This document shows, piece by piece, positions 5,835-59,899 of a DNA stretch of 64,000 bases. The first letter of the stretch is position 1. Every line of letters begins with the position of its first letter. The notes beneath the pieces are model-generated. The model was not told where the DNA came from, did no database searches, and saw only the letters and a list, made by a program, of their open reading frames with translations. The translations under genes were made by a program, and so were the position numbers. This stretch comes from Convolutriloba macropyga (taxonomy: Eukaryota): positions 82,274,001 to 82,338,000 of the forward strand of contig NC_134469.1 in NCBI RefSeq assembly GCF_964194025.1. Direction: 5' to 3'.

Positions 5835-5837
<3 letters not shown>

Positions 5838-5869
<32 letters not shown>
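5838..5869. repeat. (TA)n microsatellite inside the CRE 3' region
   Basis: Pure TA run with the same context as 25-62. Confidence 0.95.
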
Positions 5870-5871
<2 letters not shown>

Positions 5872-10329: not shown

Positions 10330-10365
<36 letters not shown>

Positions 10366-10465
10366 AGTGTACGAGAGATAAAACGTGAACGAGAAAGAGA
10401 AGGAAAGAAACCCAAAACAACATAGAGAGAGAGAGTGCTAAGAATATTTTCCATGCTGAAATAGG

Positions 10466-33280: not shown

Positions 33281-33722
33281 AAACAATTAGTTCATACGGC
33301 AATTTATTTCACTGCTTTTAGGTTGAAACGTTGTCTGAACGAATAGTACTTCTGGTTTAAAAAAATTCATTAACACAACAATAGAGAACGTTTTGTATTT
33401 TCTCAAAATTGCTCGCTAAACACAAGCAATATGCTTTCTCTCTTGGGAAAACTCTAGGAAAAAAATTTCGAGACATTACATTTAACAGACAGCCTCCAGA
33501 AAAGGAGTTGTTAACAACTGAGGTGATAAAAAGTAATTCAACTAATCTAATAAAAATTACAGGAACATGAAGGCTGTCAATGTGCTTGAGCTAAAGTCAC
33601 TGTTCCAGTCTCTGACCTCGTTCAGTTGCATATTTATTCATGAAAAAATGACATCAATGTTTCCCATAAAAGCAATCACAGAAGTCCGTCGTAATCTATG
33701 TTACAAAAACCTCTAAAGAGCT

Positions 33723-34115
33723 TGTCTTATAACGCTTACATTAGTATGCACTATTAAGTGTGTGATTACTCTATAGTTCAAGTCATCGGATGAATAGTGA
33801 ATTCGATTTGGCTATACCCTTTGTAAATAATTTGTGCACAACTTCAATTCAGTCTATCTATCTTTTCTGTTTGTCAGCCATCTTTTTTTCCCTATCAACT
33901 CTTCTTCAAGTCAAAATTCTTGGTAAGACAACTTCACAACTTCCCTATTTTTCAGGTTCTATTCAATAACTTTAAGTCTTTGAATAGAAATAAAACAATC
34001 TTTTTATCCAATCAGGATAAACTATAAAACCACACCTTCAAAGATATCAACAATCAAACAATTCAATCTATAATAATCATGATCGAATTCTAATCTTGTT
34101 ATTTCGTTCATGACA
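33723..34115 (-). repeat. 3' LTR
   Basis: TG...CA termini with short inverted ends (TGTCTTATAAC ... GTTCATGACA); homologous to 48055-48442 and 56040-56427. Confidence 0.85.
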
Positions 34116-34375
34116 CTGCGTCTTGCATTAATGAAACTTAGTTTAGCATTTTCGTATAAGCATAGTAAATTCATATAAGCAATGACATTGCGCCTTGTTT
34201 TAATATGACTAATTTTTGGATGTGGCAACTATATTACAGAAATACTTAGAGTGACTGAGTGGAATGCGTTGTTCTTTTTCATTGATTAGTGTTCAGTCTA
34301 ATTTATTTGTTTTACACATGCAGTCTTTTGCTCTTAGTTATAGAATATTAGTTCCGATAGTTAGCTGAACTGAGT

Positions 34376-36450
34376 TCAGGGTTTAATTTGTAGAGCAATC
34401 TGCTCACACAAAGATTGCATAAGATTTTGTTCTTCGTATTGTGGTGCTCTTGCTGTAGTATTAGTCACTAGTGTTGCCTCCCTTAGATCTTTCTCATTTA
34501 GAAGCTTTTGAAGCTTTTGAAGCTTTAGGAAGTTAAACTGCATATCACTGATAACCACTACTGGTCTCGGCTGAATGATAGTTCCTCAGGCAAGAATTTT
34601 TAACATATTATACTGACGTTCGTATTTGTTTGTCAAATAACCACAGAGTAATTGTGGGACATAAGAAATAAGAAATGATGTGACACTAATGGCAATCGTT
34701 ATCTTCTATGTTGAGCTATCTGTGAAGCAGTTTCTGAAGCTTGGTCTAATGGTTTTCATGTCTCCGATTATCAGTTTAGTTAAGTCGTCAAGACGATCGA
34801 ATGATTTTCGGTGGTAGTCTGTTACATTGGCAAATTCAAGTTGTACTTTTTCAATAACCTGTTCTCTTGCCTGTGTCAAAGTTGAGATACGTGGCATCTC
34901 GTTCAAAGAGTTTTTTTTGAAAAAAAATGTCGTAAGGGATCCGTAAGGTTGACATCGATTCTAACTGCATTATCATTTCAACATGAGAACAAGTTAGCTC
35001 TTAGTTCCACGAATCTTGTTTCTATCTTTGTCCCAGACTGTAAATCTATCACGCACGTTTTACATCCTGGCAATTTGTTCGTTTTATGGGGCCATTATTA
35101 GTAATTCTGTAGAGCCATTGTACCAATTCTGTAGAGCCGCAAACTGGTTTCCGATGAGGAGAGCTCCAAGACTTGTGTCTTCTGTTGTCTCAAGGGAAAA
35201 AAATTTGTGCACACTGAGAAACTGCTTGATCCAATACATGAAACAGTTTCGGGTTGAGATAGAAGAGCAATTCGTCTGGTTGATTCAGCAATTGCTATTT
35301 AATCCGCTTCAGTCTCATATTGAGAGGCGTATCCGTCTCTATCATTTGTTGGCATAGGTATCGTGATAGCACGACAAATATTGAGTGCAGTTGACCCCGA
35401 TTCAAAAGGTACGGCGAGATGAAAAATCATTCCATAATCTTCTACCACGAAATTTGTCAGCAGTTTTGTTTCATAATAAGTAAGGCTTTGAGAGGGAGGC
35501 ATTGTTAACGTTAATCGATCATCCTCTTTTGTCTGCTCAGTAGCTAAAGATTTAAGTATTTTGTCAAGTATTTGTTTTGGAACCAAAGCCATTGGTATGA
35601 ATTTACTAACCATTGTCAAAATCGAGTTGAGTATTGTTAACTTTTAAGAATAGGTAGCGATTTGATAACTCTTGATTTCATTCATAAGTGCCAATAGAGA
35701 ACTTGCTAAGTTTGTATGCAATTTCAATTTCTGGTCTCGTGCGTAGAAATATTGTGTGCAAGGCATCAGTTTTCTCGAGTTTGAGTTTATGACATCTATG
35801 GCTTTATTCGCAGTACTTTCGTGTTTTTTCGGCGTTAGAATATTTTGTTTTTGAGTTTGTTCAACGCCTTTCATTTCCGATGCTACGATATAAAATTTGT
35901 TATCAAGTTTGCTTTGAACTTCGATCCATGGGTTTTCTTTTTCTTCAAGTTTTTGTAGAGCAAAATCAATGGCAGCACGATTTTTGTCTGAACCGTCACA
36001 AACCCAAAATATACTTCCAATCGAGCACGCGATTCTTGCTCTTGCTGTAACAGCAGTAAGAGCTCCAAAGGCAATCAAAGAGACTCCACGTTTCTTTCAG
36101 GTGAATCATTTCTCATCAATGCTTCCGAATTATCTGTTCGTATGTCTTGTAGATCTTTACGTGCAAGATGTAATTGTTTCTCAAATAATCCGGAAAAGTG
36201 ATCAAAACTTCGTGAGCTTTTGTTGGCATTCATATAAGTCAGGTTGCTTCCGTTTTGTCGGGCAACGAAGGAAAAGGAATTATGAATTCTACATTGATAT
36301 ACTTTTCCGCGATTGACTTTTTCTGTTGATAAAGAAATTCAATGCCCTTGTTGGTAATTTTATCATTATAGAAGTCAGTTTGTGTAATCATTAGGAAAAA
36401 AAATTCTCTAAAGTGTTTTGAGGTCCAATTTAATTAATCATGAGTAATTC
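34376..36450 (-). pseudogene. env: env-like class I fusion glycoprotein (F-type), fragmented
   Basis: Furin-like (R)KKR site at 36088-36099 (first codon now TGA) followed by a hydrophobic peptide GVSLIAFGALTAVTA, then a heptad-like helix, FIPMALVPKQILDKIL, YYETKLL...MIFHLAVPF...RAITIPMP, and a TM-like ITIAISVTSFLISYV near 34660-34705. Lies just inside the 3' LTR. Confidence 0.7.
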
Positions 36451-37393
36451 TTTTCATTATTACTTGAATGAAATTTATAATTCGGAAAATTAAGTAAGAA
36501 CAGGACTTAAGTTTTTTGCTTCAGTTGGCCAGACAAAAGCATTTTTCACTGCCCACAGGAAATGAACAAAGTTGAATTTAAAATTTGTAATTTTGACTAT
36601 AAATTAACAGAATGCAGTCATCCCAATGTGGGAATTACTCCTGTAGAGCTATTACAGCTGAGAGAAAGTAAGAGCTTCGCTTGTAGTCTAAACAAGCCTC
36701 AAGGAGGAAGCAATAACTGATAGTGAATTCGAAGTTTTTCTCAAAATTGTTTATTGTGAGCCGAGATATTTAATTATAATCTCTATGTATGACAATGTTT
36801 TTGCGCTCGAGGTAATAATTAGTTTTCATAGGCATGGATAATATATATAAGTAAAGTTTAAGCTGTTCTCAAGGCGCAGTCTCATAAAATGTCTGTTGAA
36901 ATTTGTACTAAATAACTTTGTTTCTTTTGAGATCTTCACTTGTAATGTATAACTTTTTAAAGAAATACGACTCAAACAGGAAATGGTCTTTTAGTTTAAT
37001 AATTCATCTCATCTTTCTGTTCGCCCTATTTTTTGTTCAACTTTCTGTTGTACTAAAATTGAGTATGACATGACGCAAAAACAGAGGTTCTGTTTTGTCA
37101 AGGCAAAATGTCCTTCGTTGAGAATGGCGTTGTGGTGTTTTCAACTGACAAGTTGGAGTACCCTTGTGAGGCGTCAATTGCTGTTAGTGACGGTGACTCC
37201 TCTGTGCTGGGATGGGTGATCGGGCTAATTCTCTGCTTTGTAGCGGGGCTCTGTGTAATTCCAGCACGAACTGCTCTAATAATCAAGTGTCGTTACTAAA
37301 TTAAGTTTATTGTAACTGAACTTTTCCTTAAAGCAATTTAAGTGACATTTTTATTTTGCAAAATCAACTGACAATAAATGTTTTTAAGATGAA

Positions 37394-38095
37394 ATGGCAA
37401 ATACTCGTTGTAAGTCAAATTTTCGGGATATTCAGACACGAATTCGGAATTTTAATAATGAATACAGAAACCGAGATAAGTTAAAATTGATTGGTTGGCG
37501 ACCAGTACCCGTAGTTAACGTAAATCAATCTACCAATTGGCTGCAAGTTAGCATGGATTTAATATCTACAGGATATTTGAAATTTGTGGAGAACGATTGG
37601 GTGAAAACTCCCATTGCTATATCAAATCATCACTTACTTGAGCTCAATCCGGAATTTGTTTTTTTGTTAAATAATGTTAATAGCGAGTCTGATTTTCTTA
37701 CAAAAATTATTAAGCAGTTTAATTTTCCATCAGAAATAATTAACGGTGGACAAGAATATCGCTTGTATTCAAAACTGAAGAGTCCAGAGGAGAGTTTACG
37801 TAGAGGTTTATGGTGTCATAGTATGAATATGCAAGATCTCGTAAAGTACAAAGTTCCATCATGTTTAAAGGAAACAAAATGCGATGCTATTAATCAATAC
37901 AATTGCTGTTGGTCTGATGGACATATTGAAACAGGAGACAAAAATTCGATCTTAGTAACTTCGATTGGGGAGAAATTATGTTTTATTTGCATGCCTGGTG
38001 TCCATTCTGTTAGTTTCGAAAAACGAATGCGTACATTTGACGATTTTTCAAAATTTATTTCGAAAAATTTATTTATGGTCCTGAAAGTTCAATAA
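37394..38095 (+). CDS. Hypothetical 233-aa ORF antisense to the LTR element, between pol and env
   Basis: ATG-initiated, stop-free 702 bp in AT-rich DNA; Cys/Trp-rich C-terminal half; no recognised domain. Confidence 0.45.
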   Translation: MANTRCKSNFRDIQTRIRNFNNEYRNRDKLKLIGWRPVPVVNVNQSTNWLQVSMDLISTGYLKFVENDWVKTPIAISNHHLLELNPEFVFLLNNVNSESDFLTKIIKQFNFPSEIINGGQEYRLYSKLKSPEESLRRGLWCHSMNMQDLVKYKVPSCLKETKCDAINQYNCCWSDGHIETGDKNSILVTSIGEKLCFICMPGVHSVSFEKRMRTFDDFSKFISKNLFMVLKVQ

Positions 38096-38249
38096 TTCAG
38101 AAAAATGTTTTCTATTACATTCCCAAACTTGATTATTTTTGTGCCAGCCCAGTTTATGTGCACATGCAGTATTTACTTCAAGCGTTGGTATACCATCTGT
38201 GTGGGGTTGGGAAGCGTGTTACATGAAGGATTTGAATTGGGCTGAGCGT

Positions 38250-41200
38250 ACACTTAGACGTTATGGAACGGGAAATAAGCAGGAAGTGTTTAAATCGCTT
38301 TTGAATTATGCTGGATCTGAAGGCGCGCTTCAGATAAGCCAAGAATTGGATAAAAGAACAAAACTGTAACAATTGGTTTAACAGAACATTTGTATGCGTT
38401 TGCACAGTCCTGTCAGTTTACTTTATCAGATAATAATTCTAGAACAAAGCGGGGGCGAAAAACGGGTATTGACGGTGCGAGTAAGCGAATGAAAAGAAAT
38501 TTTTGATTTCCAGCCAACAAAGACAAATAACGCGCAACGGGAGCTAAGGAAGAAGGTTAATCCATCATAAGAATGGGTAAATATTTAATATTATAGTTTA
38601 TTTGTATTTGTTATTTAGGATAGTGGATAAAACATATAAAAAAATTCTCCTGGCGCGAATGTGTGGCAACTTGTGCTGATATTGTAACTTTGGAGCACAG
38701 CTCATTGTTACTGGAAATCACAAAATGCCTGGAATACAGCCAGTATGGATATAGTTGTTTCAAAATGGCTTCCAGGTACATTGAGTCAGGCAGAAAGTCA
38801 TGATTTCGTTTCAATAAGATATTACAATTGGTTCTAATTAATTACCCCTTTAGTTCTGAGTATATGCTATGAAACATATTATAGACCAAGTGATAGGTAA
38901 TGACAAGTCGAACAATGCTGTGGATGTGGACTTTTCAATTTCTGTCTTGAAAAAGATTTTTCACTTTTGTTAATGATAACATGTATAAGCATGGTAAATG
39001 ATTATGGAAGTTTAGAGTTTCAAACTGTGGAACTTATGAACCAAGATATTCCTAATTTGCCTACGGGTTGTATAGAGTTGTTTCAATGTAATATTTTAAG
39101 AGTTAAGGTTTCTTTCTATGAGTCACTAATTTGCAATGGTTAAGTTTACTTAAGACAAAGTGCAGTAAGCAAACGAACGGAAAATTTGAATGCTAATTAA
39201 GCTAAAGAAGATTGAGATAATTAGTTAATTGTAAGGAAAAGAATTCAATTTAATCTGGTTTTTGTGTATGTGATAATTCAAGAACTATTTACAAGAAAAA
39301 AAAACTGCTTTTGTTTTCTTTGACGATCATATCGTGACGTAGCATCAGCAACTGAGGTCCCGTCTTCGTTTTTTAGTACTGGTTGTACAACCGATTGTGT
39401 TTGTGTAGGTTGAGAGAATGTCGGAGAGATTGAAGGTTGTTGCTCTGTTATATTTGTTTGCTTCATTGCTCACGCTTTTCTTTTATTTACCTTGCTAAGT
39501 TAGACGTTGGTTGTTGCATGGAAGTAGAGGTTTGTGTTTGCATTGGTGACGATGTTGCTGATGTCTCTGAAGTTGGTGTATTATATAGCTCATGTGTTAG
39601 AAATTATGGCGATGTTTGGGAGCTAGTTGTAGATTGGGAGTTATTACTCCCAGGGTTGTAAGTGCTTCTGCTAAATGTAATGCTACTGGTGTTGAAGTAG
39701 GGTCTGATTGTGGCAGTCTTTGTTGTAGAGAAACTTTTGATGTTATGTGTGGTGTACTTCTATCATCTAGAGGACGATAATTTGTGTTTTCTACGTGTGC
39801 ATCAAAAAGTTGGGGTTCTTTAAGTGCCTCAGGAATTGACGGAACTTCGAGAAATTTTTGTTCAACAACGTCATTGATATCTTCAATTTTAAACTGCGGT
39901 ATAAATGGTTTCAATCTGACTCTATGAACAATTTGTGTATAATTTGTTTTTCTTTTCCGAATTAGGTAGTTACTTCCAATCAGAACCTTTTCAGCACGGT
40001 AGAAACCTGTCCACTTACTTTGTAACTTCCCTAATTTCTCATGTTCTGTTGTTATTAGCGGACGGAGTATCATACAATAGTCATTTACTTTCAACAGTAA
40101 GGCTTTTGCTTTTCTATCATAATAATCTCTGTATTTGCTAAAGGGAGCAACTAAATTTTCCTTGGATGTAGCAAAGATGTTATTTGACTTAGTTTGTAGA
40201 TCACTAACGTAATCGAATCTACTTGAGTAGTTAGGCAGTGTTTTGATGTTGAAACGAAAATCAATAGGGTTCATTGGTATCCTGCCATGAAAACTCAAAG
40301 TTCATGGGCATCCGAGTACTGTATGATAGCTTGTGTTGTGTTGGAATAGAGCCAGATCCTGTCATGTTTAAGTTGGAATATGCCTGTCATGTTTAAGTTC
40401 GTTCTCATAAATCTTATGATGTCGTTTCAATGGTCCATGAAATCGTTCAAGAGGGCCGATTATCTGGGCGTGTTTAACCGTTGCATGATTTAGTAAATTC
40501 AAGCATTTCTGAAAAGCTTTGAATTAGTTTTGATGTGAACACTGAACCTTTGTCTGTTAGGATTCCTAATGGAATGTAGGAGTGTCCCGAGAACCATCGC
40601 ATTAATATTTTAGCCACTGTTTCAGCAGGGGGTGATGTAATTGGCTGAGCAAACATATACTTTGAGAAAAAATCCATTGCGGTAATCACGCACGACACTT
40701 AGACTTTATGGAACGGGAAAAAAGCATGAAGTGTTTAAATCTTTTTTGAATTATGCTGGATCTGAAGGCGCGCTTCAGATAAGCCAAGAATTGGATAAAA
40801 GAACAAAACTGTAACAATTGGTTTAACAGAACATTTGTATGCGTTTGCACAGTCCTGTCAGTTTACTTTATCAGATAATAATTCTAGAATAAAGCGGGGG
40901 CGAAAAACGGGTATTGACGGTGCGAGTAAGCGAATGAAAAGAAATTTTTGATTTCCAGCCAACAAAGACAAATAACGCGTAACGGGAGCTAAGGAAGAAG
41001 GTCAATCCATCATAAGAATGGTTAAATATTTAATATTATAGTTTATTTGTATTTGTTATTTAGGATAGTGGATAAAACATATAAAAAAATTCTCCTGGCG
41101 CGAATGTGTGGCAACTTGTGCTGATATTGTAACTTTGGAGCACAGCTCATTGTTACTGGAAATCACAAAATGCCTGGAATACAGCCAGTATGGATATAGT

Positions 41201-43220
41201 TGTTTCAAAATGGCTTCCAGGTACATTGATTCAGGCAGAAAGTCATGATTTCGTTTCAATAAGATATTACAATTGGTTCTAATTAATTACCCCTTTAGTT
41301 CTGAGTATATGCTATGAAACATATTATAGAATTATAGACCAAGTGATAGGTAATGTCAAGTCGAACAATGCTGTGGATGTGGACTTTTCAATTTCTGTCT
41401 TGAAAAAGATTTTTCACTTTTGTTAGTGATAACATGTATAAGCATGGTAAATGATTATGGAAGTTTAGAGTTTCAAACTGTGGAACTTATGAACCAAGAT
41501 ATTCCTAATTTGCCTACGGGTAAATTGAAAGGGCTTGCGTATATTGCTATCTCCCATACTGTTGAAAACACATTTATGTAATACGTTCAGTAAAGCGCTA
41601 TATTGGGTTGTTTCAATGTAATATTTTAAGAGTTAAGGTTTCTTTCTATGAGTCACTAATTTGCAATGGTTAAGTTTACTTAAGACAAAGTGCAGTAAGC
41701 AAACGAACGGAAAATTTGAATGCTAATTAAGCTAAAAAAGATTGAGATAATTAGTCAATTGTAAGGAAAAGAATTCAATTTAATCTTGTTTTTAATGTGA
41801 TAATTCAAGAACTATTTACAAGAAAAAAAACTGCTTTTGTTTTCTTTGACGATCATATTGTGACGTAGCATCAGCAACCTGAGGTCCCGTCTTCGTTTTT
41901 TAGTACTGGTTGTACAACCGATTGTGTTTGTGTAGGTTGAGAGAATGTCGGAGAGATTGAAGGTTGTTGCTCTGTTATATTTGTTTGCTTCATTGCTCAC
42001 GCTTTTCTTTTATTTAACTTGCTAAGTTAGACGTTGGTTGTTGCATGGAAGTAGAGGTTTGTGTTTGCGTTGTGACGATGTTGCTGATGTCTCTGAAGTT
42101 GGTGTATTATATTGCTCATGTGTTAGAAATTATGGCGATGTTTGAGAGCTATTTGTAGATTGGGAGTTGTTACTCCTAGGGTTGTAAGTGCTTCTGCTAA
42201 ATGTAATGCTACTGGTGTTGAAGTAGAGTCTGATTGTGATAGTCTTTGTTGTAAAGAAACTTTTGATGTTATGTGTGGTGTACTTCTATCATCTAGAGGA
42301 CGGTAATTTGTGTTTTCTACGTGTGCATCAAAAAATTGGGGTTCTTTAAGTGCCTCAGGAATTGACGGAACTTCGAGAAATTTTTGTTCAACAACGTCAC
42401 TGATATCTTCAATTTTAAATTGCGGTATAAATGGTTTCAATCTGACTCTATGAACAATTTGTGTATAATTTGTTTTTCTTTTCCGAATTAGGTAGTTACT
42501 TCTTGTCAGAACCTTTTCAACACGGTAGAAACCTGTCCACTTGCTTTGTAACTTCCCTAATTTCTCATGTTCTGTTGTTATTAGCGGACGGAGTAACATA
42601 CAATAGTCATTTACTTTCAACAGTAAGGCTTTTGCTTTTCTATCATAATAATCTCTGTATTTGCTAAAGGGAGCAACTAAATTTTCCTTGGATGTAGCAA
42701 AGATGTTATTTGACTTAGTTTGTAGATCACTAACGTAATCGAATCTACTTGAGTAGTTAGGCAGTGTTTTGATGTTGAAACGAAAATCAATAGGGTTCAT
42801 TGGTATCCTGCCATGAAAACTCAAAGTTCATGGGCATCCGAGTACTGTATGATAGCTTGTGTTGTGTTGGAATAGAGCCAGATCCTGTCATGTTTAAGTT
42901 GGAATATGCCTGTCATGTTTAAGTTCGTTCTCATAAATCTTATGATGTCGTTTCAATGGTCCATGAAATCGTTCAAGAAGGCCGATTATCTGGGCGTGTT
43001 TAACCGTTGCATGATTTAGTAAATTCAAGCATTTCTGAAAAGCTTTGAATTAGTTTTGATGTGAACACTGAACCTTTGTCTGTTAGGATTCCTAATGGAA
43101 TGTAGGAGTGTCCCGAGAACCATCGCATTAATATTTTAGCCACTGTTTCAGCAGGGGGCGATGTAATTGGCTGAGCAAACATATACTTTGAGAAAAAATC
43201 CATTGCGGTAATCACGCACG
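38250..43220. repeat. Tandem duplication inside the LTR element (38250-40694 and 40695-43220)
   Basis: Junction CACGCACG-A-CACTTAGAC at 40695 joins integrase sequence (cf. 43211-43221) to sequence starting at 38250. Integrase C-terminal ORFs 39597-40298 and 42123-42824 are paralogous. Confidence 0.92.
39280..40694 (-). pseudogene. Duplicated integrase C-terminal half
   Basis: ORFs 40474-40698 (ITAMDFFSKY, ILTDKGSVF) and 39597-40298 (YYDRKA, LQSKWTGFY, VHRVRLKPF). Confidence 0.85.
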
Positions 43221-46200
43221 AGTAACCTCCTGATTTTGGAAGTTGTCCAGCAATATCAACTTGTAACAAATCTGCAGGAAAACTTTTATTAGATGTAAAT
43301 GGGTTGAATGGTGGCGTCAAATTTTCAGGCTTTGGTGATTTTGTTTGAATACAAGACAGGCAATTATTAATATAAACAATTAAAATTTCAGTAAAACCAG
43401 GAAATAAATGTTTATTGCGGAGTTCAAAAATTGTTTTTGAAATGCTTAGATGACCTTTTAGTTTTGAATTATGAATTCTAAAAATTAGTTCTTCTCGCAA
43501 TTGTCTTGGCACAACAGTTTGCTTTGTGAATTTTTGGCCAGTGTGATCAAAAAATTTTCGATAAAGAATTCCGTCATCCATAACTAATCCTTTGAGTTGT
43601 TTAGGATAATTTTGACAATCGTAAGATGAATAAGTTGTATCAGGCCTAGTTTTGTTTGTTATCTAAGTTTTTGCTTTTTGAATATCCTCATCTTTTGTTT
43701 GTTCTATTTTGATATTCAATGGTGTCAGTTTTGACTCTAAGTTCATTTCTTTTAACGGATTAGTTGTATCTCTATTGAAGTAAATTCATCAATGATGGTA
43801 TCAATTTCGGATTTCTCAGTTTCAATTACAATTGTTGGTATTTTGAAATTGTCTTCATTTTTTGCTGTCTTCAATAGGTGCAGATTCGCAAAGTTGATTT
43901 TTGGGCGTATTCTGCTGAAAGGAATTGTTTATTTTTCTCACTGCTACTTTTTTTTCTAATTTCAGACCCATTTTTGTAGCTGGATTTAAATTGATTCGCG
44001 ACAAGTAATCTGCAGCCGCATTTGCTTTTCCAGAGATGTGGCCAATTACAAAATTGAAAGATAAGATGTAATCTACAGCATTCCATAGGTTTCCAGGAAT
44101 GACCTTCGCTTTTAAGAATTTAGTCACAGTTTTGTTATCAGTCAATACAAGAATTGGTTTGTTAGATAATCCCCATAAGTAGAGTTCAAACGTTTTAAAT
44201 GCTAAATGAACGCTCAGAAATTTTTTCAAATAAATAGAATGCTTGAGTTGATTCAGAGAGAATAAGTATGATCCAAAAGCGACTGGAGCATACGATTTTT
44301 CTATGGGTGTTTTTGCGTGATAATCATAATCTTCAATCAGTAAGATAAATCCTGCTGCATAAAAGCTAGCGTCACATGCAAGAAAAAAATGAGAGTTCGG
44401 TTTGGCCATTTTAACTGATAATTTGCAGGCTTGATTCAAATCTTGTTACAATATCTGAATGCTTTCCGTGTGTTCATTTTTGATATTGAATTCTTCTTTT
44501 TTGAGGTAGTAACTTGAGAAATGGGTGTAATTTGACAGCTAATTTAGGTAGAAGTTTTTCAAAATATTGAATGAAACCAATAAATTTGTGAACTTGTTTA
44601 ATAGTTTTCGGCATATTAATGTTGTTAATGCAATTCTGAACTTTATCTTTATTAGGGCTCAGGCCGGTTTCCGTAATGGTGTGTCCAAGAAACTGAATCT
44701 GAGAAATGCCGAACTGGCATTTTTCTATTGACAACTTAAATCCTGATCGTTCTATGCTTTTAAAAGTTGCATCGCTTTCCAAGTCATCAAAACAGACAAA
44801 AGATTATTCATTGGCTACACACGTTCCAATTGTTTACTAACACACGAACTGAAAGCCGTTGGTGATCTGCTAAGTCCTTGCGCTGACCTTTTGAATGCAA
44901 AAGTTCCTCCACCGAAATTGACAGCTAACAGCTGTACACTCTTTCATCTGCCATCTGCATTGAGAAGCAAGCTTGACTACAATCCATTTCCGCGAAAGTT
45001 TTCTTTCCTGCTAAATGTGCGGAGGCATCACATATATTAGGGATAGGGAAACTGTTATTAGTATAGTCATGTCGAAGAAGATGGTTAATCCTCCTAAGAT
45101 CAATTAGTATTCTTAATGTCCCTGAAGATCTACTTTGTGCAAATATCGGTGATGAATACTTTGGAAACGGGAGTGATGCAATAATGTCAAAGTACTGCAT
45201 TAATGCAAGTTCTATAAGAATTTCATTGCGTAGGTGTATTGTGTTGTAGGGTTCGATGTGTATATTGGTTTGTCATTCTTTGGCGTCAGTTTTACTAGAC
45301 AGTCAGTGTTTGCAAAATCCAGCCTGTGTCGCGTAAATATCTGATGATGTTTTACAAGTAAGAGGTCAATTTTGCATCGTATCATTTTTGAAAAAAACGG
45401 AATAATTGCAGTTGAATTTTGGCAAAAATTGTTCTCTGTGTTCCTCGTTGATTGTAGGATCCAGAAGTTCTGTTTGTTTGAAAAGTTTTATTGTATTATA
45501 AATGGTTTTTTGAATACCATTCAATTTGGACGAATCATTGCAATTTTGTGAGGTACCAAAAAAGTCTGAAGACTAATTATCCTTTTGTTGACTTGGTTTA
45601 TTCTCATTAATCGTGTTTAAATCTGTATGACAGTCAATTATTGATGGATGTATTGGTAACAAATAAGATGCTTGTTTTTGTGTGACCAATTGCAAGTTTG
45701 CGGAGACACCGTTACTTTGTAATGCCGGAAGTTAATTATTCCAAATTTGTTTCGATTGTTAGAATCAGTTTTGCTAATGGAAAATATGACACACAATCCA
45801 GATTTTCGCTCAAAGAGTAATGACGGCTCAAAAATTCCAATAAAGTTTTGTTATGATGTGTGGGTTTTTTCAAGTTTACATTCAGTTATCTCTTGCTGAT
45901 TTGGTAATATGGTTATTTTGGAAATGTTTACCAGTACTAAGGTTCTTAGTACTGATTTTGATGAATTAATGTTGTTCAAACTGAGCGTAATATCAGGTAG
46001 GTAAAGCAATCTTTTGTGAGGATGTGAAATAATATCATTGTTTTCGGAGAAGGGCATGCGTAGTAATGGTGAGTTCATTTCTTTCAAAACAAGGAACTGC
46101 TCATTGAAGAATGTGCCATCGATGTAAAATACGATTTCAACATTATAAATAACAGATACTTTTTCTCCATTAGCTAGTTTAACAAGTTTGGGAAATGAAA

Positions 46201-46330
46201 AACTTGAGGATGAAATATACTTTGTTGCTTGTTTCTGGATAAGTTGAAACGATTTGAGAGGTAGAGCACTCTAAAATGCTCCACTATCAACAAGAGCATC
46301 AATATAAAATTTGGGGAAGCTCAATTGTAT
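41820..46330 (-). pseudogene. pol: Gypsy pol (protease, RT, RNase H, integrase), fragmented
   Basis: Protease ALVDSGA (~46280). RT YSSPIF...LRILIDLRRIN, EMDCSQA, and CFDD in place of YxDD (~44785). RNase H LACDASFYAAG, VLTDNK, ANAAADYLSR. Integrase H..GH...CLSC, LQVDIAG, TDKGSVF. Confidence 0.9.
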
Positions 46331-46399
46331 GTAATAAGGTTTGTCTTCATGCAATTGAATAGATAATGTACGGTTAGTTGTGAGTATTGATGGAAGTAG

Positions 46400-47475
46400 A
46401 ATATCTGACTGTGGCTGTGCTAGTTTTTTTGAGTTTCCTATGTAGTAGTTGAAAGGGATAATTCCCTCCACGCTGAGCAGGTTGTCTTAAGAGACAATCA
46501 CGTTGCATGTAAGCCAGGTTGACCACATATTCAACATATGACAGGGTTAAACCTAGCTCTATGTGTTTGACCTCTTGTTGAGCTGTACTGTGACCGCGGG
46601 AACGAGTGTCTGTAGTTTGTCCATGTTGCGGCTGCATTATTATGATTGTATCGTTGTCCAAAATTGCTGCAATTGTTGCTGTTTCTCCTTTCTATATTTG
46701 GTCCACCACAGTTCAATTATCGAACAGTTTAGTCTATTTGCCTTTTCTGTTGTCCAATGTTCTTCTGTGTTTGTGCCAGATCTTTTTGAGCTTCAACGAC
46801 TGAGTTTAGTACTTGTGTAAAGCTAGTAGATGGCTGAGTACTCGAGAAGCATTGAATGCAGTCGAAACCTAATATTCATCAATTAATATGCATTTCAAAA
46901 CTGGTTGTTTAGAAATTTGGGTAAAGAGCGTGTCAATTGTATCTGTATCTGGTCGCATGAGTAACTTCAATTGCAGCTATGTTGGCATTACTGCTATAAA
47001 GGCGTCTCGGATTCTTCGAGTTTGCTCGCTTGATCTATCTACTCCTCCAGAATTAGCAAAGGCAATGTGTGCTAGCTTTGTTAGGTCTTTAAAGAAATCT
47101 TCTTGTTTATTTTGAGGTATCGAATTTCTTTTGTTGAAATTTGAGTTTGTAGAATTCATGTTGATTTGCACTAAAATAACGTCTTTCTAATGCTGTAAGT
47201 GCTGTCGCCAGGTCTGCTTTTTCTGCCGCTGATAGTTCAAGAAAGTAGCTGAGTGCACCACCTGCTAAATGGAGTTTTAGAAAAACAATTTTACCTGCAT
47301 CTGGGACTTGCGCGAGTGTTATAAAGCTCCTGATTTGCTCTCTAAATACTCTGAAATCTTCAGTTGGTCCTCCAGAAAAAAGATTAATGTGAACAGCTGG
47401 AGGTGCTTGGCTTGTAGCTAGACTTGTCGTTATTGCGTTGGCAAAATCTGTAGCTGCTGCTGCTACATCAGCCAT
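46400..47475 (-). pseudogene. gag: gag, fragmented
   Basis: ORF from ATG at 47475 (LFSGGPTEDFRVFREQ...LKLHLAGGALSYF...ALERRYF, retrotransposon-gag-like); degenerate zinc knuckle C*ICGQPG..H...C near 46495-46536; lies directly upstream of the protease. Confidence 0.8.
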
Positions 47476-48054
47476 TGTCAGATTATATAATCAAATAATG
47501 AATTAGTGATTAATTTGTTACGTAATTGTTTATATAAGAGAAGTTTCGTAAGGTGAGAGACAAAATTAATAGAATTTATTCGTTTTGTAAGTCTTTTGAT
47601 ATAATCATTGCTATGACATGATAATAGGGGTCTGAAAATATTGCAAGTACTGTAGCATTGCAGTCAGGTAATTTGAAGAACGTTTGTTCGGGGTGGAAAG
47701 TAGGAAAATTTTTGTTGTCACTCAATGAATCGTAAAATATATCTATCAATCTGGGCAACGTTATCTTGCAAGATTAGCTAATTTTTAAGTATGGTCAAGT
47801 TCAATAATTGTGTTCGTTTTGTATAGTGAGTTAAAAATAGATTCATAATTTGAATGAGATTTTTGTAAATTATAAATTCCCACGTGAAAGGTTAAAAAAT
47901 TTTCATAAATTAGATAAATATAAAAAGTCTCAATGTGAATGTGAAAAAAATTGAGTTTTACAATTTTAGATTATAATGCGAGAAAAATTTTTTGTTTGCT
48001 AACATATGTGCTTATAAAATCAGGCATTTTTATTTAGTCACTTTAAACGGTCAA

Positions 48055-48442
48055 TATTTTATAATGCTTACATTAGTATGTTCTATTAAGTATCTGATTA
48101 CTCTATGATTCAGGTCTTCAGACGAATAGTGAATTCGATGTGGCTATACCTTTTGAAAACATTTGTGCACAACTTCAATTCAGTCTATCTATCTTTTCTG
48201 TTTGTCAACAAACTTTGTTTTTCTATCAACTCTTCTTCAATTCAAACTTCTTGGAAAGACAACTTCCCTAATTGTCAGGTGCTATCCAATAACATTTAAG
48301 CATTTGAATAGAATTATAACAATCTTTCTTATCCAATCAAGATCAACTAAAAAAAACCACACATTCAATGATATCAACAATCAAACAATGCAATCTATGA
48401 TAATCATGATCAAATTCTAATCTTGATATTTTGGTTATGACC
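48055..48442 (-). repeat. 5' LTR
   Basis: Homologous to 33723-34115 over its full length; termini decayed. Confidence 0.85.
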
Positions 48443-50119
48443 GCTTGCTATGCAATGTCCATGAAAGATCCAGCGAAATGTTCAAAAAAAGAATGAAAGG
48501 CCGTAAAACGCTTCAGTTTACTAATTTTTTATCAACAAAAAGTAAGCCAAGTTCATTTTAAAAGTTTGTCAAATTATGTAACTACGCAAGTTTAACGCAC
48601 CCTTTTAGTCAAACAGACTGTTTTGAGCAGTCACAAATGTGATAAGTCATACCAATGCTCGGATTCTATAGAATAAGTTGCAAAATATTACCCAATTATA
48701 TTTTGCTTCCGAGGGGTTATCTAGGATTATGATGGCTAATGCATAGACCACATTAATAAAGCCATATTTCCAAAACTTGTGAAAAAAAAGTTGATTAGGA
48801 GAAAGCACCTCCCCTAAAAGGGTAGTCGGGGGGCAGCAAGTCAACTCCTATGTGCAATTAAAATTCCTGACAGTAGTCAAAAATTGAAGCATCAGATGCA
48901 AAAGATAAAGAAATTAAAGCATCAGAATTATAATCAAAATAGATATGGTAAATAGCAATTAAAGTATAAGGTGCAGTGATTTTCAAACAAGATTAGAAAA
49001 GATATTAAGCATTTAGCACAACAGCTTCAATTCCTCTACAATGGTTCCTATTGATGCTTCTACTGCAGAGCGCCGGCGCATGGAGCGCGCGCCACGGAGG
49101 TTGATTATGGAGCTGCGCAAAAGAGCTAACCTTAATTTTGTCCTCAGGTACGTGATCACGTACCATGATTCGGGCGGGGGCTATGAATAACCATGATTCG
49201 GGCGGGGGCTATAAATTATCTGACCACTAAGCTGGGGGGGGGGGGCGATAATGGGAAATACCCGACTAAGCTTCAGGCGACCACTGCATCTCGTGTGTCG
49301 AGCCTTTGTTTGATCAGGCAATAATTGCTCTAATTGAATCGCAATTTCCACAAGATCATATGACTCTCTAAGAACAACAGTCGAGTTCATCGCGGCTTCA
49401 AAGCAAAAAACCTCAAATATGCAAAGAGAAACAATTTGAAGTTATCCTTATTTTCAGATTTGATCAAAAAGAACTGATGAAAGCAGTATTTACACAGAAC
49501 GCATAAGAGTTCTTTGGCTTGTTTTTAATTGATGTAACAAAGTAAGTCTATTGAAAGATTTAAAAAAGATCGTCAGTTAAAATAGTTTTCTTACGAAAGT
49601 TTTCAAACTCATCGTCAGGTTCATCGTCAGGTTACAAAGAATACAAAATGGTAGGATAAACAACCAGAAAAAAATGCATATCATTAAAATCGACTCATTC
49701 AAGAAAATTAAAAACGAATTTTTACGTATTTACAACCGTATTTACAAAATTTGTTATCTATATGTTTTCAATTTGATGTAGCAGATGCATATGTTTCGTT
49801 TTGTAGCAATCTCTATAGAAACTTTTTCAATACATTTCATTTCAATAGGGTACAATCTTTTCGTTTACGATCTCTAATGTAAAGTTCTCTATTGAAATTT
49901 TGTCCGTTTATGCCCCCCACCCATTACGTAATGCGCCCCCAGTTACAGAGCACGGTTCATTATATAGTAAATCTTTGTTAAAACATGGCACGAGCTTCTG
50001 AGGATGCAAATAGTACGCTCTCGCTAAGCTGCGGCACATAGGGATGAGATCCGAAAAATGATATCACTTGGGGGGGTCTCGTATTTCCAAACTCAAGGAT
50101 GAAAAGGAAAACGCTTTAA

Positions 50120-50340
50120 GAGCCGTTCAGCCTTCCCTCAAGAAAAATGGAGGATGAGTTATCAGTAGGTTCGTTTCTTCTCAGCGACCTACAACCTTGC
50201 AAAAAACTTCTATAGAGGGCTAAGCTTTTTTGGTCCAAATAAAGGATATAAATTTGGCGTGCAGTTCCCTGCGCTTTCCGCTGATTTTAGCTGCCATTCA
50301 TTTGAGAGATTTTTCTGCCGCGGCGAATAAGTTTCTCGGG
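50120..50340 (-). pseudogene. Degenerate CRE-tail fragment (second copy ~58105-58325)
   Basis: Minus-strand translation LFAAAEKSLK*MAAKISGKRRELHAKFISFIWTK; homologous to 33060-33280. Confidence 0.65.
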
Positions 50341-50544
50341 CAATATGTAACATTGTTGATTCTGTTTTGGATCCCCCACCTGCTCTACGTTTTGATATTT
50401 TATTAGAATTTTTGAATCGAACTATAGAAAAGCAAGTAAACTAAGATTATAATGTGAAGGATGAACAGCAAGGATTCTATAAAGCACACAAAAAGAATAA
50501 ATTAACAGCCTCCCTTCTTCTCTAAACTCCAATCGAACAATAAC

Positions 50545-51890
50545 CAATTTTATGTGCACATAGTTTCCACTGTTAAGAGGAACCCTCAAGTGCATCTTGA
50601 GTGAGCAAATTTTCTTCACAAAAATTAACAATTCCCTCTCGGAACACCCTAAGGTAATGGAAATCTGGGGCTCCTAGATATGATCATAAACGTAAGCGAT
50701 GAAAAATTAGCTGCCATTGGTATCAGAAATCTATTCATACCTGCACGATCTTAGATTTCCATAGCTGTGCACCGTTGCAACATTAAGAAAATATGATTCA
50801 AGGGACTGTAGATAGGATTTTAGATGCAACCAGTGAATGGCAATCCTTTGACGTAGCTCTTAAAAAAACAAAGAAATCTGGCCTAAAAACCAGCATCCAA
50901 CTGAGTGGTTTTCCAGTATTGTGATTGAGACTTCGGATAAAATAGTCACAAAAGAGAAGGTTGCCTGAAAAACCCCCAAAATTAAACAATATTTTAAAAA
51001 AATTGAAAGTCTTTAAAAAATGAGCTTGATCCGATGTTTTTCTTCAATAAAGGATGAAATTTACTCAATTATTGCGAGTAGACAGAAAAATTGATTTGAA
51101 AAAAATTTTCACAACTTGCTTGGATACCCTGAATCATCTTTTGATAAAAATTTGAATTTGCTCCTGTTATATAAAGCTAAAATTAATGAAATCAATTCCA
51201 TCTATGTTGGCCAAAACAGCAAAAATCTTACAACTAGAAATTAGAAGCAGCAGAAGAAAGATTCCCCAACGGGAAAACACCCCGTTGATATTGTGAAACA
51301 GCGCATAAAATTGAATGGGAAATTCTTGTTGCATTTTGGGGGTTGAAAAAATATTGACAATCGAAGTGATTTACATCAAAAAGCTGAAACCGCAAGTAAA
51401 AACGCGCGACAACTGCCGCGGCGGGAATTGAAATTGAAGTATTAGCTCAAGTGAAAAGAGTTTGACTTTTGAAATACAAATGCTATATTGCTACATGCTT
51501 AAGCAAAACTTTGTCCACCTCAACAAGTAAAGGATAATAACAGATAGGAAAGAAAGCAAGTAAATACTCCTGTTGAGGAAACTAATACAAAATTTCAAAA
51601 GCTAAACGGAAAATGGATTGAAAAAAGATGTGAGAGTGATTTTAACTTTAAATAATTTTAAAAAATTCGTTGTTATATTCACTGTTTTTGTAGAATTTGA
51701 TAGATAAAGTTAATGACAAGTTTATATACTTTGTAAATTTTCTTATTTGATTGTGAAATCAATTTTAGGTAAACTGACCATGAAAGCGATTTTCGAAAAC
51801 GTGCAATTTTTAGTTCAATTAAAATTTTAATTGACAAATTTTTGGTCTCTACAACCGATGACGATCCTCATCCTCGGATGGAGATAACCA
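50545..51890 (+). mobile_element. Decayed Penelope-like element A (RT C-half, GIY-YIG, 3' region); copy at ~58530-59890
   Basis: Frame-broken translation: IVSTVKRNP..ANFLHKN.QF..GNLGLLDM, CHWYQKS..ILDFHSCAPLQH..IQGTVDRI, SIYVGQNSKNLTTR, IEWEIL, LTIEVIYIKKLKPQVKTRD..RELKLKY* (stop at ~51445). Confidence 0.8.
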
Positions 51891-51899
51891 AACGCCTTA

Positions 51900-52916
51900 G
51901 ATGAGCAAAATTTGATTTTGTTATCAAAGGAATCATCATGTCAGCATGGTTATGTGATGTACACCAATATTCTTAGTGCTGAAATTTAAGAAATTTTGAG
52001 AAATACTCTCCTCACACTGGTTGAATACTGACCGGTTCTCCAGCTCTATATCTTCATAAAACATTTGTTTTTTTTTCTGAAATTATCAAAAAAGGGAAGA
52101 TAAAAACGAGGAGAGATGAATGCAACCATAAACTGGTGAATGCAACCGTAATGTCACAAATAGAGGAAAAGGATTCAAATGTGAAGAATCTGGGAGTCAA
52201 AGGTATTTTTTCCATGCAATATGTGAGAACCTTAAAGATCGGCTCTACCCCGAAGTGAAACACTTGGTTTGCTGTGGCTCTTATTGTCAAATTTTCAACA
52301 AAATAGTGAACCGAAAACAAAGACAATTATTGAGAAGGTATGTAGACGGAAAATTTTTGCTCTGTAAATGGTGAGCTAAACAGTTTGAGGTTTGCTTAGA
52401 TAAGTCAACAAACTGCACAAGAGAGCAGAACTCAGAGAGGAGCAGACACAAAAATATGGTAGTTTAGCATTTTTAGACATGAACAACAAGGTAAATAGCT
52501 GTAGAAATAGGTTTTGAGTTGTCCCAGAAACCAGAGGAAACGGAAATTGAGTTCTGAGAAGCAAAACGATATAACAAAAGTTTGACCAAGCTCGGAAGAA
52601 AAACGTAAGTAGTATGTCAAACAATCAATACAATTGGTGGTGAACTTCTGTTTTCATCAATGTTGGTTCACAAAAATTGAAAAAAAACCCAACTGGGAAT
52701 TGATGGCAAAAAGTGCAACAGAGTGGATACGAATCATAAGAAAAAAGACCATCATTTTTCCGCAGTACCGACGTAACATCAGCTTGCTATTGGAGCGCAA
52801 TGTGCAACGACATTGTGAAATGACAACGATCTTCAACCCTCGTAAAGCAAACACGTCCCTGAAATCAAGTATTGATAGCAATCTGAAATCTCATGTGGTG
52901 TTGCTTTAGATGCAAT
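51900..52916 (+). mobile_element. Decayed Penelope-like element B (PHD-like finger inside RT), cut by the duplication junction
   Basis: GECNRNVTNRGKGFKCEE...FHAIC...CCGSYC then LRRYVD, LH.., GSLAFLDM, QKPEET, QYRRNIS...LKSHVV. Confidence 0.75.
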
Positions 52917-55900
52917 TGTACACTCTTTCATCTGCCATCTGCATTGAGAAGCAAGCTTGACTACAATCCATTTCCGCGAAAGTTTTCTTTCCTGCTAAAT
53001 GTGCGGAGGCATCACATATATTAGGGATAGGGAAACTGTTATTAGTATAGTCATGTCGAAGAAGATGGTTAATCCTCCTAAGATCAATTAGTATTCTTAA
53101 TGTCCCTGAAGATCTACTTTGTGCAAATATCGGTGATGAATACTTTGGAAACGGGAGTGATGCAATAATGTCAAAGTACTGCATTAATGCAAGTTCTATA
53201 AGAATTTCATTGCGTAGGTGTATTGTGTTGTAGGGTTCGATGTGTATATTGGTTTGTCATTCTTTGGCGTCAGTTTTACTAGACAGTCAGTGTTTGCAAA
53301 ATCCAGCCTGTGTCGCGTAAATATCTGATGATGTTTTACAAGTAAGAGGTCAATTTTGCATCGTATCATTTTTGAAAAAAAACGGAATAATTGCAGTTGA
53401 ATTTTGTCAAAAATTGTTCTCTGTGTTCCTCGTTGATTGTAGGATCCAGAAGTTCTGTTTGTTTGAAAAGTTTTATTGTATTATAAATGGTTTTTTGAAT
53501 ACCATTCAATTTGGACGAATCATTGCAATTTTGTGAGGTACCAAAAAAGTCTGAAGACTAATTATCCTTTTGTTGACTTGGTTTATTCTCATTAATCGTG
53601 TTTAAATCTGTATGACAGTCAATTATTGATGGATGTATTGGTAACAAATAAGATGCTTGTTTTTGTGTGACCAATTGCAAGTTTGCGGAGACACCGTTAC
53701 TTTGTAATGCCGGAAGTTAATTATTCCAAATTTGTTTCGATTGTTAGAATCAGTTTTGCTAATGGAAAATATGACACACAATCCAGATTTTCGCTCAAAG
53801 AGTAATGACGGCTCAAAAATTCCAATAAAGTTTTGTTATGATGTGTGGGTTTTTTCAAGTTTACATTCAGTTATCTCTTGCTGATTTGGTAATATGGTTA
53901 TTTTGGAAATGTTTACCAGTACTAAGGTTCTTAGTACTGATTTTGATGAATTAATGTTGTTCAAACTGAGCGTAATATCAGGTAGGTAAAGCAATCTTTT
54001 GTGAGGATGTGAAATAATATCATTGTTTTCGGAGAAGGGCATGCGTAGTAATGGTGAGTTCATTTCTTTCAAAACAAGGAACTGCTCATTGAAGAATGTG
54101 CCATCGATGTAAAATACGATTTCAACATTATAAATAACAGATACTTTTTCTCCATTAGCTAGTTTAACAAGTTTGGGAAATGAAAAACTTGAGGATGAAA
54201 TATACTTTGTTGCTTGTTTCTGGATAAGTTGAAACGATTTGAGAGGTAGAGCACTCTAAAATGCTCCACTATCAACAAGAGCATCAATATAAAATTTGGG
54301 GAAGCTCAATTGTATGTAATAAGGTTTGTCTTCATGCAATTGAATAGATAATGTACGGTTAGTTGTGAGTATTGATGGAAGTAGAATATCTGACTGTGGC
54401 TGTGCTAGTTTTTTTGAGTTTCCTATGTAGTAGTTGAAAGGGATAATTCCCTCCACGCTGAGCAGGTTGTCTTAAGAGACAATCACGTTGCATGTAAGCC
54501 AGGTTGAACACATATTCAACATATGACAGGGTTAAACCTAGCTCTATGTGTTTGACCTCTTGTTGAGCTGTACTGTGACCGCGGGAACGAGTGTCTGTAG
54601 TTTGTCCATGTTGCGGCTGCATTATTATGATTGTATCGTTGTCCAAAATTGCTGCAATTGTTGCTGTTTCTCCTTTCTATATTTGGTCCACCACAGTTCA
54701 ATTATCGAACAGTTTAGTCTATTTGCCTTTTCTGTTGTCCAATGTTCTTCTGTGTTTGTGCCAGATCTTTTTGAGCTTCAACGACTGAGTTTAGTACTTG
54801 TGTAAAGCTAGTAGATGGCTGAGTACTCGAGAAGCATTGAATGCAGTCGAAACCTAATATTCATCAATTAATATGCATTTCAAAACTGGTTGTTTAGAAA
54901 TTTGGGTAAAGAGCGTGTCAATTGTATCTGTATCTGGTCGCATGAGTAACTTCAATTGCAGCTATGTTGGCATTACTGCTATAAAGGCGTCTCGGATTCT
55001 TCGAGTTTGCTCGCTTGATCTATCTACTCCTCCAGAATTAGCAAAGGCAATGTGTGCTAGCTTTGTTAGGTCTTTAAAGAAATCTTCTTGTTTATTTTGA
55101 GGTATCGAATTTCTTTTGTTGAAATTTGAGTTTGTAGAATTCATGTTGATTTGCACTAAAATAACGTCTTTCTAATGCTGTAAGTGCTGTCGCCAGGTCT
55201 GCTTTTTCTGCCGCTGATAGTTCAAGAAAGTAGCTGAGTGCACCACCTGCTAAATGGAGTTTTAGAAAAACAATTTTACCTGCATCTGGGACTTGCGCGA
55301 GTGTTATAAAGCTCCTGATTTGCTCTCTAAATACTCTGAAATCTTCAGTTGGTCCTCCAGAAAAAAGATTAATGTGAACAGCTGGAGGTGCTTGGCTTGT
55401 AGCTAGACTTGTCGTTATTGCGTTGGCAAAATCTGTAGCTGCTGCTGCTACATCAGCCATTGTCAGATTATATAATCAAATAATGAATTAGTGATTAATT
55501 TGTTACGTAATTGTTTATATAAGAGAAGTTTCGTAAGGTGAGAGACAAAATTAATAGAATTTATTCGTTTTGTAAGTCTTTTGATATAATCATTGCTATG
55601 ACATGATAATAGGGGTCTGAAAATATTGCAAGTACTGTAGCATTGCAGTCAGGTAATTTGAAGAACGTTTGTTCGGGGTGGAAAGTAGGAAAATTTTTGT
55701 TGTCACTCAATGAATCGTAAAATATATCTATCAATCTGGGCAACGTTATCTTGCAAGATTAGCTAATTTTTAAGTATGGTCAAGTTCAATAATTGTGTTC
55801 GTTTTGTATAGTGAGTTAAAAATAGATTCATAATTTGAATGAGATTTTTGTAAATTATAAATTCCCACGTGAAAGGTTAAAAAATTTTCATAAATTAGAT

Positions 55901-56427
55901 AAATATAAAAAGTCTCAATGTGAATGTGAAAAAAATTGAGTTTTACAATTTTAGATTATAGTGCGAGAAAAATTTTTTGTTTGCTAACATATGTGCTTAT
56001 AAAATCAGGCATTTTTATTTAGTCACTTTAAACGGTCAATATCTTATAATGCTTACATTAGTATGTTCTATTAAGTATCTGATTACTCTATGATTCAGGT
56101 CTTCAGACGAATAGTGAATTCGATGTGGCTATACCTTTTGAAAACATTTGTGCACAACTTCAATTCAGTCTATCTATCTTTTCTGTTTGTCAACAAACTT
56201 TGTTTTTCTATCAACTCTTCTTCAATTCAAACTTCTTGGTAAGACAACTTCCCTAATTGTCAGGTGCTATCCAATAACATTTAAGCATTTGAATAGAATT
56301 ATAACAATCTTTCTTATCCAATCAAGATCAACTAAAAAAAACCACACATTCAATGATATCAACAATCAAACAATGCAATCTATGATAATCATGATCAAAT
56401 TCTAATCTTGATATTTTGGTTATGACC
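52917..56427 (-). mobile_element. Duplicated 5' half of the Gypsy element (partial RT, PR, gag, 5' LTR at 56040-56427)
   Basis: Near-identical to 44933-48442. Confidence 0.9.
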
Positions 56428-59400: not shown

Positions 59401-59899
59401 CCGGGGCGGGAATTGAAATTGAAGTATTAGCTCAAGTGAAAAGAGTTTGACTTTTGAAATACAAAAGCTATATTGCTACATGCTTAAGCAAAATTTTGTC
59501 TACCTCAACAAGTAAAGGATAATAACAGATAGGAAAGAAAGCAAGTAAATACTCCTGTTGAGGAAACTAAGACAAAATTTCAAAAGCTATACGGAAAATG
59601 GATTGAAAAAAGATGTGAGAGTGATTTTAACTTTAAATAATTTTAAAAAATTCGTTGTTATTTTCACTGTTTTGGTAGAATTTGATAGACAAAGTTAATG
59701 ACAAGTTTATATACTTTGTAAATTTTCTTATTTGATTGTGAAATCAATTTTAGGTAAACTGACCATGAAAGCGATTTTCGAAAACGTGCAATTTTTAGTT
59801 CAATTAAAATTTTAATTGACAAATTTTTCGTCTCTACAACCAATGACGATCCTCATCAGCATATCTCATCCTCGGATGGAGATAACCAAACGCCTTAGA

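Follow-up and report, generated by a model that had tools for sequence, protein, structure and literature searches.

The 64,000-nucleotide stretch of the Convolutriloba macropyga genome analysed here (assembly GCF_964194025.1, contig NC_134469.1, positions 82,274,001 to 82,338,000, forward strand; hereafter the window, with coordinates counted from its first letter) carries a minus-strand Ty3/Gypsy element of 14,718 bp at 33,725-48,442. Between its pol and envelope (env) genes lies a two-gene cassette on the opposite strand, one gene of which encodes a putative JmjC-fold dioxygenase. By alignment, the 3′ long terminal repeat (LTR) spans 33,725-34,115 and the 5′ LTR 48,057-48,442 (both minus strand), and an identical 5-bp target-site duplication (TSD), GCTTG, flanks them at 33,720-33,724 and 48,443-48,447. 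A previous examination of the letters without database searches (the sequence-only reading) had placed a Gypsy element here, and the LTRs, the TSD and the pol order confirm it. Its by-eye estimate of ~15% LTR divergence was fair, as the two repeats are 85.5% identical when gaps are included and differ by substitutions at 11.6% of 379 aligned sites (Kimura two-parameter distance 0.126).

Internally, pol occupies 42,123-46,430 (minus strand, many stops and frame changes) in the order protease (PR), a weak dUTPase-like stretch, reverse transcriptase (RT), RNase H (RH) and integrase (IN). In Pfam searches of the window copy RNase H and integrase scored above the cut-off and RT weakly, in Gypsy order, and pol of a sister element with an open frame has Ty3 Gag-Pol as its best match in the Protein Data Bank (PDB; E 1e-43, runner-up 4e-27). 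The dUTPase-like signal between PR and RT was found in two of the six pol proteins scanned (E 0.00095 and 0.022). LTRs with a TSD, the pol order PR-RT-RH-IN and Ty3 as closest match place the element in Ty3/Gypsy (Metaviridae). A broken gag, recognised from translations, lies at 46,377-47,475 (minus strand), followed by a decayed primer-binding site at 48,040-48,056 (minus strand), which in young sisters matches the 3′ end of host tRNA-Leu. Self-comparison revealed an internal tandem duplication of ~2.5 kb, 38,250-40,694 against 40,695-43,221, with copies 97.6-97.8% identical; the extra copy, 38,250-40,694, holds the 3′ part of the JmjC gene, a spacer and the 3′ part of the integrase. The element measures 14.7 kb rather than 12.2 kb because of this duplication, in agreement with the ~12 kb previously proposed without it, and seven measured sisters of the same layout span 11.5-12.4 kb. 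The unusual length that had been remarked on is accounted for by the antisense JmjC cassette, which fills the multi-ORF region and had gone unidentified. Since stops and frame changes run through gag, pol and env, the window copy is a dead F-envelope Ty3/Gypsy element, as had been read.

The element is itself partly copied in the window. A 7.6-kb repeat, 44,933-52,549 and 52,917-60,547 (99.0% identity), duplicates the 5′ half of pol, gag, the 5′ LTR and flank, with a third LTR copy at 56,042-56,426 inside it; it represents either a tandem duplication that arose recently or an artefact of the assembly.

The env gene lies 3′ of pol at 34,382-36,430 (minus strand, 5′ end approximate) and is broken by several stops and frame changes. 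Its translations contain the landmarks that had been named: a fusion-peptide-like stretch and a heptad region, as well as the IPMALVPKQ/YYETKLL/RAITIPMP block and, at the C-terminus, a hydrophobic segment with its tail. The transmembrane segment, counted from the translation, falls at 34,622-34,705 (a predicted helix at residues 627-660 in the sister model), and the cleavage-site region with the fusion-peptide-like stretch at 36,040-36,099, with frame breaks inside. The quoted 12-mer TGA-AAG-AAA-CGT is present on the minus strand at 36,099-36,088, but its interpretation as one change from R-K-K-R does not stand, since the frame breaks at the cleavage site and sisters read R-N-R-R or R-E-K-R, in one case R-N-G-R. 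When the same genome was searched with 150 amino acids (aa) of env, 150 matches were scored among 912 candidates, several of them in open frames of 740-794 codons. An open sister env of 742 aa has 925 relatives among protein representatives; env relatives were found in none of 101 candidate viral contigs.

Single env proteins yielded nothing useful in Pfam and PDB sequence searches, and an env profile reached paramyxovirus F at E 0.009. The fold of the open sister env was modelled as a monomer from 28 sequences (pLDDT 70, below 50 in the fusion-peptide region). This model matched 202 PDB chains at E ≤ 0.001 (best 2.4e-7), with paramyxovirus or pneumovirus F in all 40 matches listed; in BFVD it matched chu-like glycoproteins and baculovirus F (E 1e-18 to 3e-20) as well as an abalone herpesvirus protein, and its Atlas clusters were Baculo_F and Fusion_gly. 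TM-scores were low (0.2-0.4), as may be expected for the monomer of a protein with two conformations. Of 28 env rows aligned, 24 have an R-x-x-R/K cleavage motif and the remaining four are N-terminally short; the ratio of nonsynonymous to synonymous substitution rates (dN/dS) is 0.06-0.16 in three unsaturated pairs. With its position 3′ of pol, the modelled F fold, a furin-type site, a fusion peptide and a transmembrane segment, env can be identified as an F-type class I fusion protein, as had been proposed, and the element counts as an errantivirus as PMC13524379 uses that term operationally. It is common to sister copies and belongs to the element; an unrelated insertion lacking in sisters is thereby ruled out. 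Troyka, with a 3-bp TSD, CG...CG termini and no env (PMC12440569), is ruled out as an identity by the 5-bp TSD, other termini and env found here, and Odin, which lacks an env gene (PMC9040795), by the presence of env.

A candidate JmjC dioxygenase gene on the opposite strand

Antisense to the element, between pol and env, lies a plus-strand gene at 37,394-38,560. In the window its frame of 235 codons (37,388-38,095) is open until 38,095 and continues out of frame to ~38,560; the codons for the first His and the Glu lie at 37,922-37,930 and that for the distal His at 38,163-38,165. In sisters the gene is open over 379-400 codons, in frames without introns, and a genome search with a 379-aa sister protein yielded 108 scored matches out of 899 candidates. 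The Pfam JmjC signal is weak (E 0.0095-0.018) and below threshold, the best score being 16.8 bits against a cut-off of 24. A profile of the family had three PDB matches at E ≤ 10, all of them KDM7 (E 0.06-0.1), and the Atlas result was JmjC clusters (0.95). The structural model is confident (pLDDT 86.9), and with it Foldseek returned PHF2 or KDM7A at ranks 1 to 16 (best E 4.8e-9), followed by many FIH and JMJD5 rows.

In JmjC proteins the motif H-x-D/E...H supplies the iron ligands, and a Thr and a Lys bind 2-oxoglutarate (2-OG). All 26 rows covering these positions keep the corresponding Thr, first His, Glu/Asp and distal His, and 25 of the 26 keep the Lys; rows down to ~27% identity are among them. 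Four unsaturated pairs gave dN/dS values of 0.12, 0.15, 0.19 and 0.23; distant pairs are saturated at synonymous sites. The strand opposite the JmjC gene holds no frame longer than 132 codons, and therefore the constraint belongs to the antisense gene. Together with the low dN/dS, this rules out a chance or shadow ORF. The antisense protein thus has the modelled fold and the kept ligands of a JmjC 2-OG/Fe(II) dioxygenase, with activity on a substrate predicted. It would add to the JmjC proteins a compact family, deeply diverged and below the reach of Pfam.

Layout and spread of the antisense cassette

The second gene of the cassette, for a small membrane protein, lies just upstream of the JmjC gene at 37,031-37,299 (plus strand) and is broken near its 5′ end by comparison with sisters, in which its product of 91-100 aa has a signal-like start, an ectodomain rich in Cys and a transmembrane helix; neither of two sister proteins matched Pfam. 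Among sister elements (loci numbered with L) the cassette occurs in two layouts and is antisense in both. Layout A, which includes the window, reads pol-[cassette]-env, with the small gene just upstream of the JmjC gene as here. Layout B reads pol-env-[small sense ORFs]-[cassette]-3′ LTR; its small gene was found in L072, L087, L089 and L090 and not in L091 or L077. In the L035/L037 family, too, the JmjC gene lies 3′ of env. The small sense ORFs of layout B, three or four of 77-151 aa between env and the antisense JmjC gene (L071:6713-8064, L075:6749-7908, and in L078, L088 and L090), matched nothing in Pfam in the three cases scanned. At G000:C6:30,432,272-30,445,710 (L045-L048), the JmjC region occurs four times in tandem at intervals of 4.1 kb, and a 379-aa frame is open in every copy.

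An env gene lies within 1.5 kb and on the opposite strand at 28 of the 30 best JmjC loci. Conversely, 15 further env loci were chosen for having no JmjC match listed alongside; nine of them carry the JmjC gene and one the small gene alone, while three are internally deleted, one has no cassette and one was fetched too short. L114, L116 and L123 are internally deleted copies, and L118 is rearranged. The lineage is not just a relic, since LTR pairs are at least 99% identical in 11 of the 14 sisters in which both LTRs were found. A 5-bp target duplication is kept in 11 of these 14 sisters, and the primer site begins TGG(T/C)GACA in 13, matching host tRNA-Leu over 16 bases in one. LTR termini differ from TG...CA family by family (TG...GA, TG...TA, AG...GT/CT, TA...TA). 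Matches to the tRNA-Leu 3′ pattern are densely arrayed in tandem at G000:C11:45.17-45.22 Mb and C1:80.69-80.73 Mb, with tRNA-Leu genes confirmed only in L104 and L106.

For 12 elements, trees were built from IN, from env and from JmjC; each splits layout A from layout B, and all three share the groups {window, L021, L040} and {L027, L081}, with L025 and L085 shifting between trees. The env row of L081 is short, and the window JmjC row is read across its frame break; this single-frame reading artificially lengthens the window's branch in the JmjC tree. On these trees the cassette mostly travelled with its elements, moving position at least once. Within layout B, L075, L078 and L088 have env sequences 97.5-99% identical, yet the JmjC gene of L088 is only 66% identical to those of L075 and L078, and on this pattern the cassette appears to have been exchanged between families.

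Relatives of the JmjC gene also occurred in 6 of 60 candidate stretches of metagenome contigs (28-35% identity) and in none of five candidate viral contigs. In contig L098 the gene and the beginning of an F-type env face each other head-to-head, with a small Cys/transmembrane ORF between them; the divergence and separate source of the contig suggest that it comes from another host. The other five contigs are 1.4-2.2 kb long and had no env or integrase match. In one metagenome contig (L103:1094-2152) the JmjC relative and a second ORF converge; this ORF closes with a weak Macro-like domain (E 0.016) and may be the terminal part of a pol gene.

The antisense orientation, the position that varies between lineages and the absence of the cassette from L125, where IN and env have none between them, would all suit a captured host gene or nested insertion that is carried passively and plays no part in the element's life; L125 also counts against the anti-silencing role proposed below. 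Purifying selection and kept ligands in even the most divergent rows largely refute such passive carriage. Moreover, the open frames are intronless, the JmjC tree broadly follows IN and env, and the family profile matched none of six host JmjC loci tested as donors (a lower bound, the loci being taken from an exon-wise Pfam search). We hold passive carriage to be scarcely credible.

Possible substrates and role

Taking the fold and its neighbours together, it seems evenly poised whether the JmjC enzyme of this lineage removes repressive histone methyl marks and so helps the element escape host silencing; the most plausible target marks are H3K9 or H3K27. KDM7, PHF2, PHF8, KDM2 and JMJD5 are the best structural matches and share with the family a Thr at His-3, a Lys at His+17 and the distal His. 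In structural comparison by VIA, ceKDM7A (Z 14.6, 260 residues), JMJD5 (14.0), PHF2 (13.7) and KDM2A (13.6) are tied, and JMJD6 (12.9), TYW5 (12.7) and KDM4-6 (10.4-11.9) score lower. Eighteen of 21 tails consist of 17-30% Lys plus Arg.

Several observations weigh against a histone demethylase. One of 27 rows matched Pfam JmjC, below the cut-off (E 0.018); identity to solved JmjC structures is at most 16%, with TM-scores of 0.35-0.42; and the hydroxylase JMJD5 ties with the demethylases (Z 14.0, rmsd 3.1, 189 residues), with JMJD6, TYW5 and FIH next at Z 12-13. KDM7 and KDM2 enzymes combine an H-x-D motif with PHD or CXXC reader domains, whereas this family has H-x-E (Glu in 25 of 26 rows), carries Ser or Thr instead of the Tyr of PHF2 at His+10 in 24 of 26 rows, and showed no PHD or other reader domain by Pfam. 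KDM7 and KDM2 act on mono- and dimethyl marks, while transposon silencing in animals relies largely on H3K9me3. Even with a loose pattern, an AT-hook-like core was recognised in no more than 9 of the 21 tails, and two near-identical JmjC pairs have dN/dS of 0.60 and 3.7, with few changes. Because of H-x-E and the missing reader domain, the protein is not classed as a KDM7 member; it differs from KDM7/PHF2/PHF8, KDM2 and JMJD5 also in its length of ~380 aa and its basic tail.

Much of this would equally suit a protein hydroxylase of the JMJD5/JMJD6/FIH kind, acting on a host defence, splicing or translation factor or on a protein of the element. JMJD5 is a joint top structural match with the lowest rmsd, the Pfam searches found no histone-reader domain, and many FIH and JMJD5 rows stand behind the KDM7 rows in Foldseek. 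On the other hand, the KDM7/KDM2 alignments extend over 247-260 residues and include the post-barrel helical region, against 189 residues for JMJD5; KDM7 alone appears among the sequence-profile matches; and the tail is basic. We consider a hydroxylase unlikely, yet a serious competitor. An enzyme acting on nucleic acid, such as the tRNA primer or the element RNA, would resemble TYW5 (Z 12.7) or, functionally, the AlkB of an orchid Gypsy element, a precedent for RNA demethylation (PMC9289625), and the basic tail could bind RNA. However, AlkB-type and other 2-OG folds score below JmjC proteins, and the best matches are enzymes with protein substrates, which makes this very improbable.

A methylated histone thus remains the preferred substrate of the JmjC enzyme, and a mechanism can be envisioned around it. 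The cassette would be transcribed in antisense on its own, starting at an internal promoter in layout A and near the 3′ LTR in layout B; for a sister stretch no RNA data set was listed, and contigs of four sequencing runs of unspecified library type cover the element and its flank equally and therefore say nothing on expression. The basic tail would bring the enzyme into the nucleus, where demethylation of histones would counter silencing and keep the element expressed. By analogy with insect errantiviruses, env would let particles pass from cell to cell, and the small membrane protein might, as a guess, be an accessory at the surface or in particle trafficking. The same demethylase could instead be aimed at host genes, that is, at the immune, cell-fate or germline programmes of the cell that is entered, as proposed for the JmjC genes of LbFV, a filamentous DNA virus of wasps (PMC5381508). 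The structural evidence for this is identical, and no sequence-specific DNA-binding module turned up by which the enzyme could be directed to the element; yet an integrating element would gain most directly by reopening its own chromatin. We regard a host-gene target as rather improbable, ranking behind the hydroxylase, and retain the escape of the element from silencing as the leading role.

Known relatives and wider meaning

An undescribed lineage had been suggested as possible, but an F-type env is no novelty in itself: Ty3/gypsy elements with an F-type env have been described across non-insect animals as 'ancient errantiviruses' (Chary and Hayashi, PMC13524379) and in rotifers as TelKA (PMC5408684), and the envelope alone makes the element another member of this group. 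Wnt genes in the genome mark the present host, too, as an animal. The ancient errantiviruses share the order LTR-gag-pol-env, an F env with a signal-like start, furin-type site, fusion peptide and transmembrane segment, multicopy young elements, and tRNA-Leu among the reported primers. What sets the present lineage apart is the cassette of an antisense JmjC gene and a small membrane-protein gene; the words 'JmjC', 'demethylase' and 'antisense' are absent from the accessible text and supplements of that report. TelKA likewise has a paramyxovirus-like F env and a dUTPase between PR and RT (weak here), although its env has ~600 aa against 740-800 aa in our elements. Extra ORFs are common in rotifer elements, but those reported are of GDSL, DEDDy or transmembrane types, and 'JmjC' does not appear in the available text (PMC5408684).

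The closest published cases of the enzyme are the orchid Gypsy AlkB and the LbFV JmjC genes. The orchid Ogre-like Gypsy element encodes an AlkB m6A RNA demethylase, also an extra 2-OG/Fe(II) dioxygenase and one proposed to counter host control; it is a recent capture with an RNA substrate in a plant, whereas here a deeply diverged JmjC fold is encoded antisense in elements with an F env (PMC9289625). LbFV shares a virus-borne JmjC, proposed to alter host chromatin, but is a large double-stranded DNA virus whose genes have clear eukaryotic homologues, unlike those of a 12-15 kb retroelement for which no close cellular homologue was found (PMC5381508). An antisense ORF that is conserved and lies between pol and the 3′ LTR is known from the plant and fungal elements Grande, RIRE2, Retand and Boty, its function being called unknown in the accessible text (PMC7264820); the ORF here differs in its enzyme fold, kept ligands and env-bearing animal elements. 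A literature search that covered mostly titles and the starts of abstracts and few subscription journals, and left Repbase-type databases aside, found no report of a JmjC-encoding retrotransposon. F-env Gypsy elements are known, then, and the antisense JmjC cassette is the new finding, one worth testing.

Elsewhere in the window, an element with ~1.2-kb inverted arms (98-99%) and (TA)n at its boundaries occupies 1-5,893 and contains a 919-aa reverse-transcriptase ORF at 2,998-5,754 (RVT_1, E 3.7e-10), the 3′ part of which is repeated in the inverted arm. From ~6,400 to 28,000 runs a tandem array of ~10 units of ~1.97 kb, with no ORF of at least 120 aa in the stretch 6,400-10,500.

What keeps young transposons active in animals despite piRNA-guided and heterochromatin silencing is an open question, and anti-silencing enzymes encoded by the elements themselves have seldom been described. 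We propose, tentatively and at somewhat less than even confidence, that these enveloped animal retroelements form an old lineage, present in several hosts or at least two, whose members encode a histone demethylase on an antisense cassette that moves and is exchanged between families, directly erase heterochromatin marks and carry the small membrane protein as a second accessory, in what might be called 'complex' errantiviruses. An own JmjC enzyme in a retroelement makes the question testable with a single purified protein, and since Pfam misses the family, other repeat libraries may hold genes of this kind that have escaped notice. If the proposal is true, it would reveal a form of retroelement counter-defence in which heterochromatin marks are erased directly.

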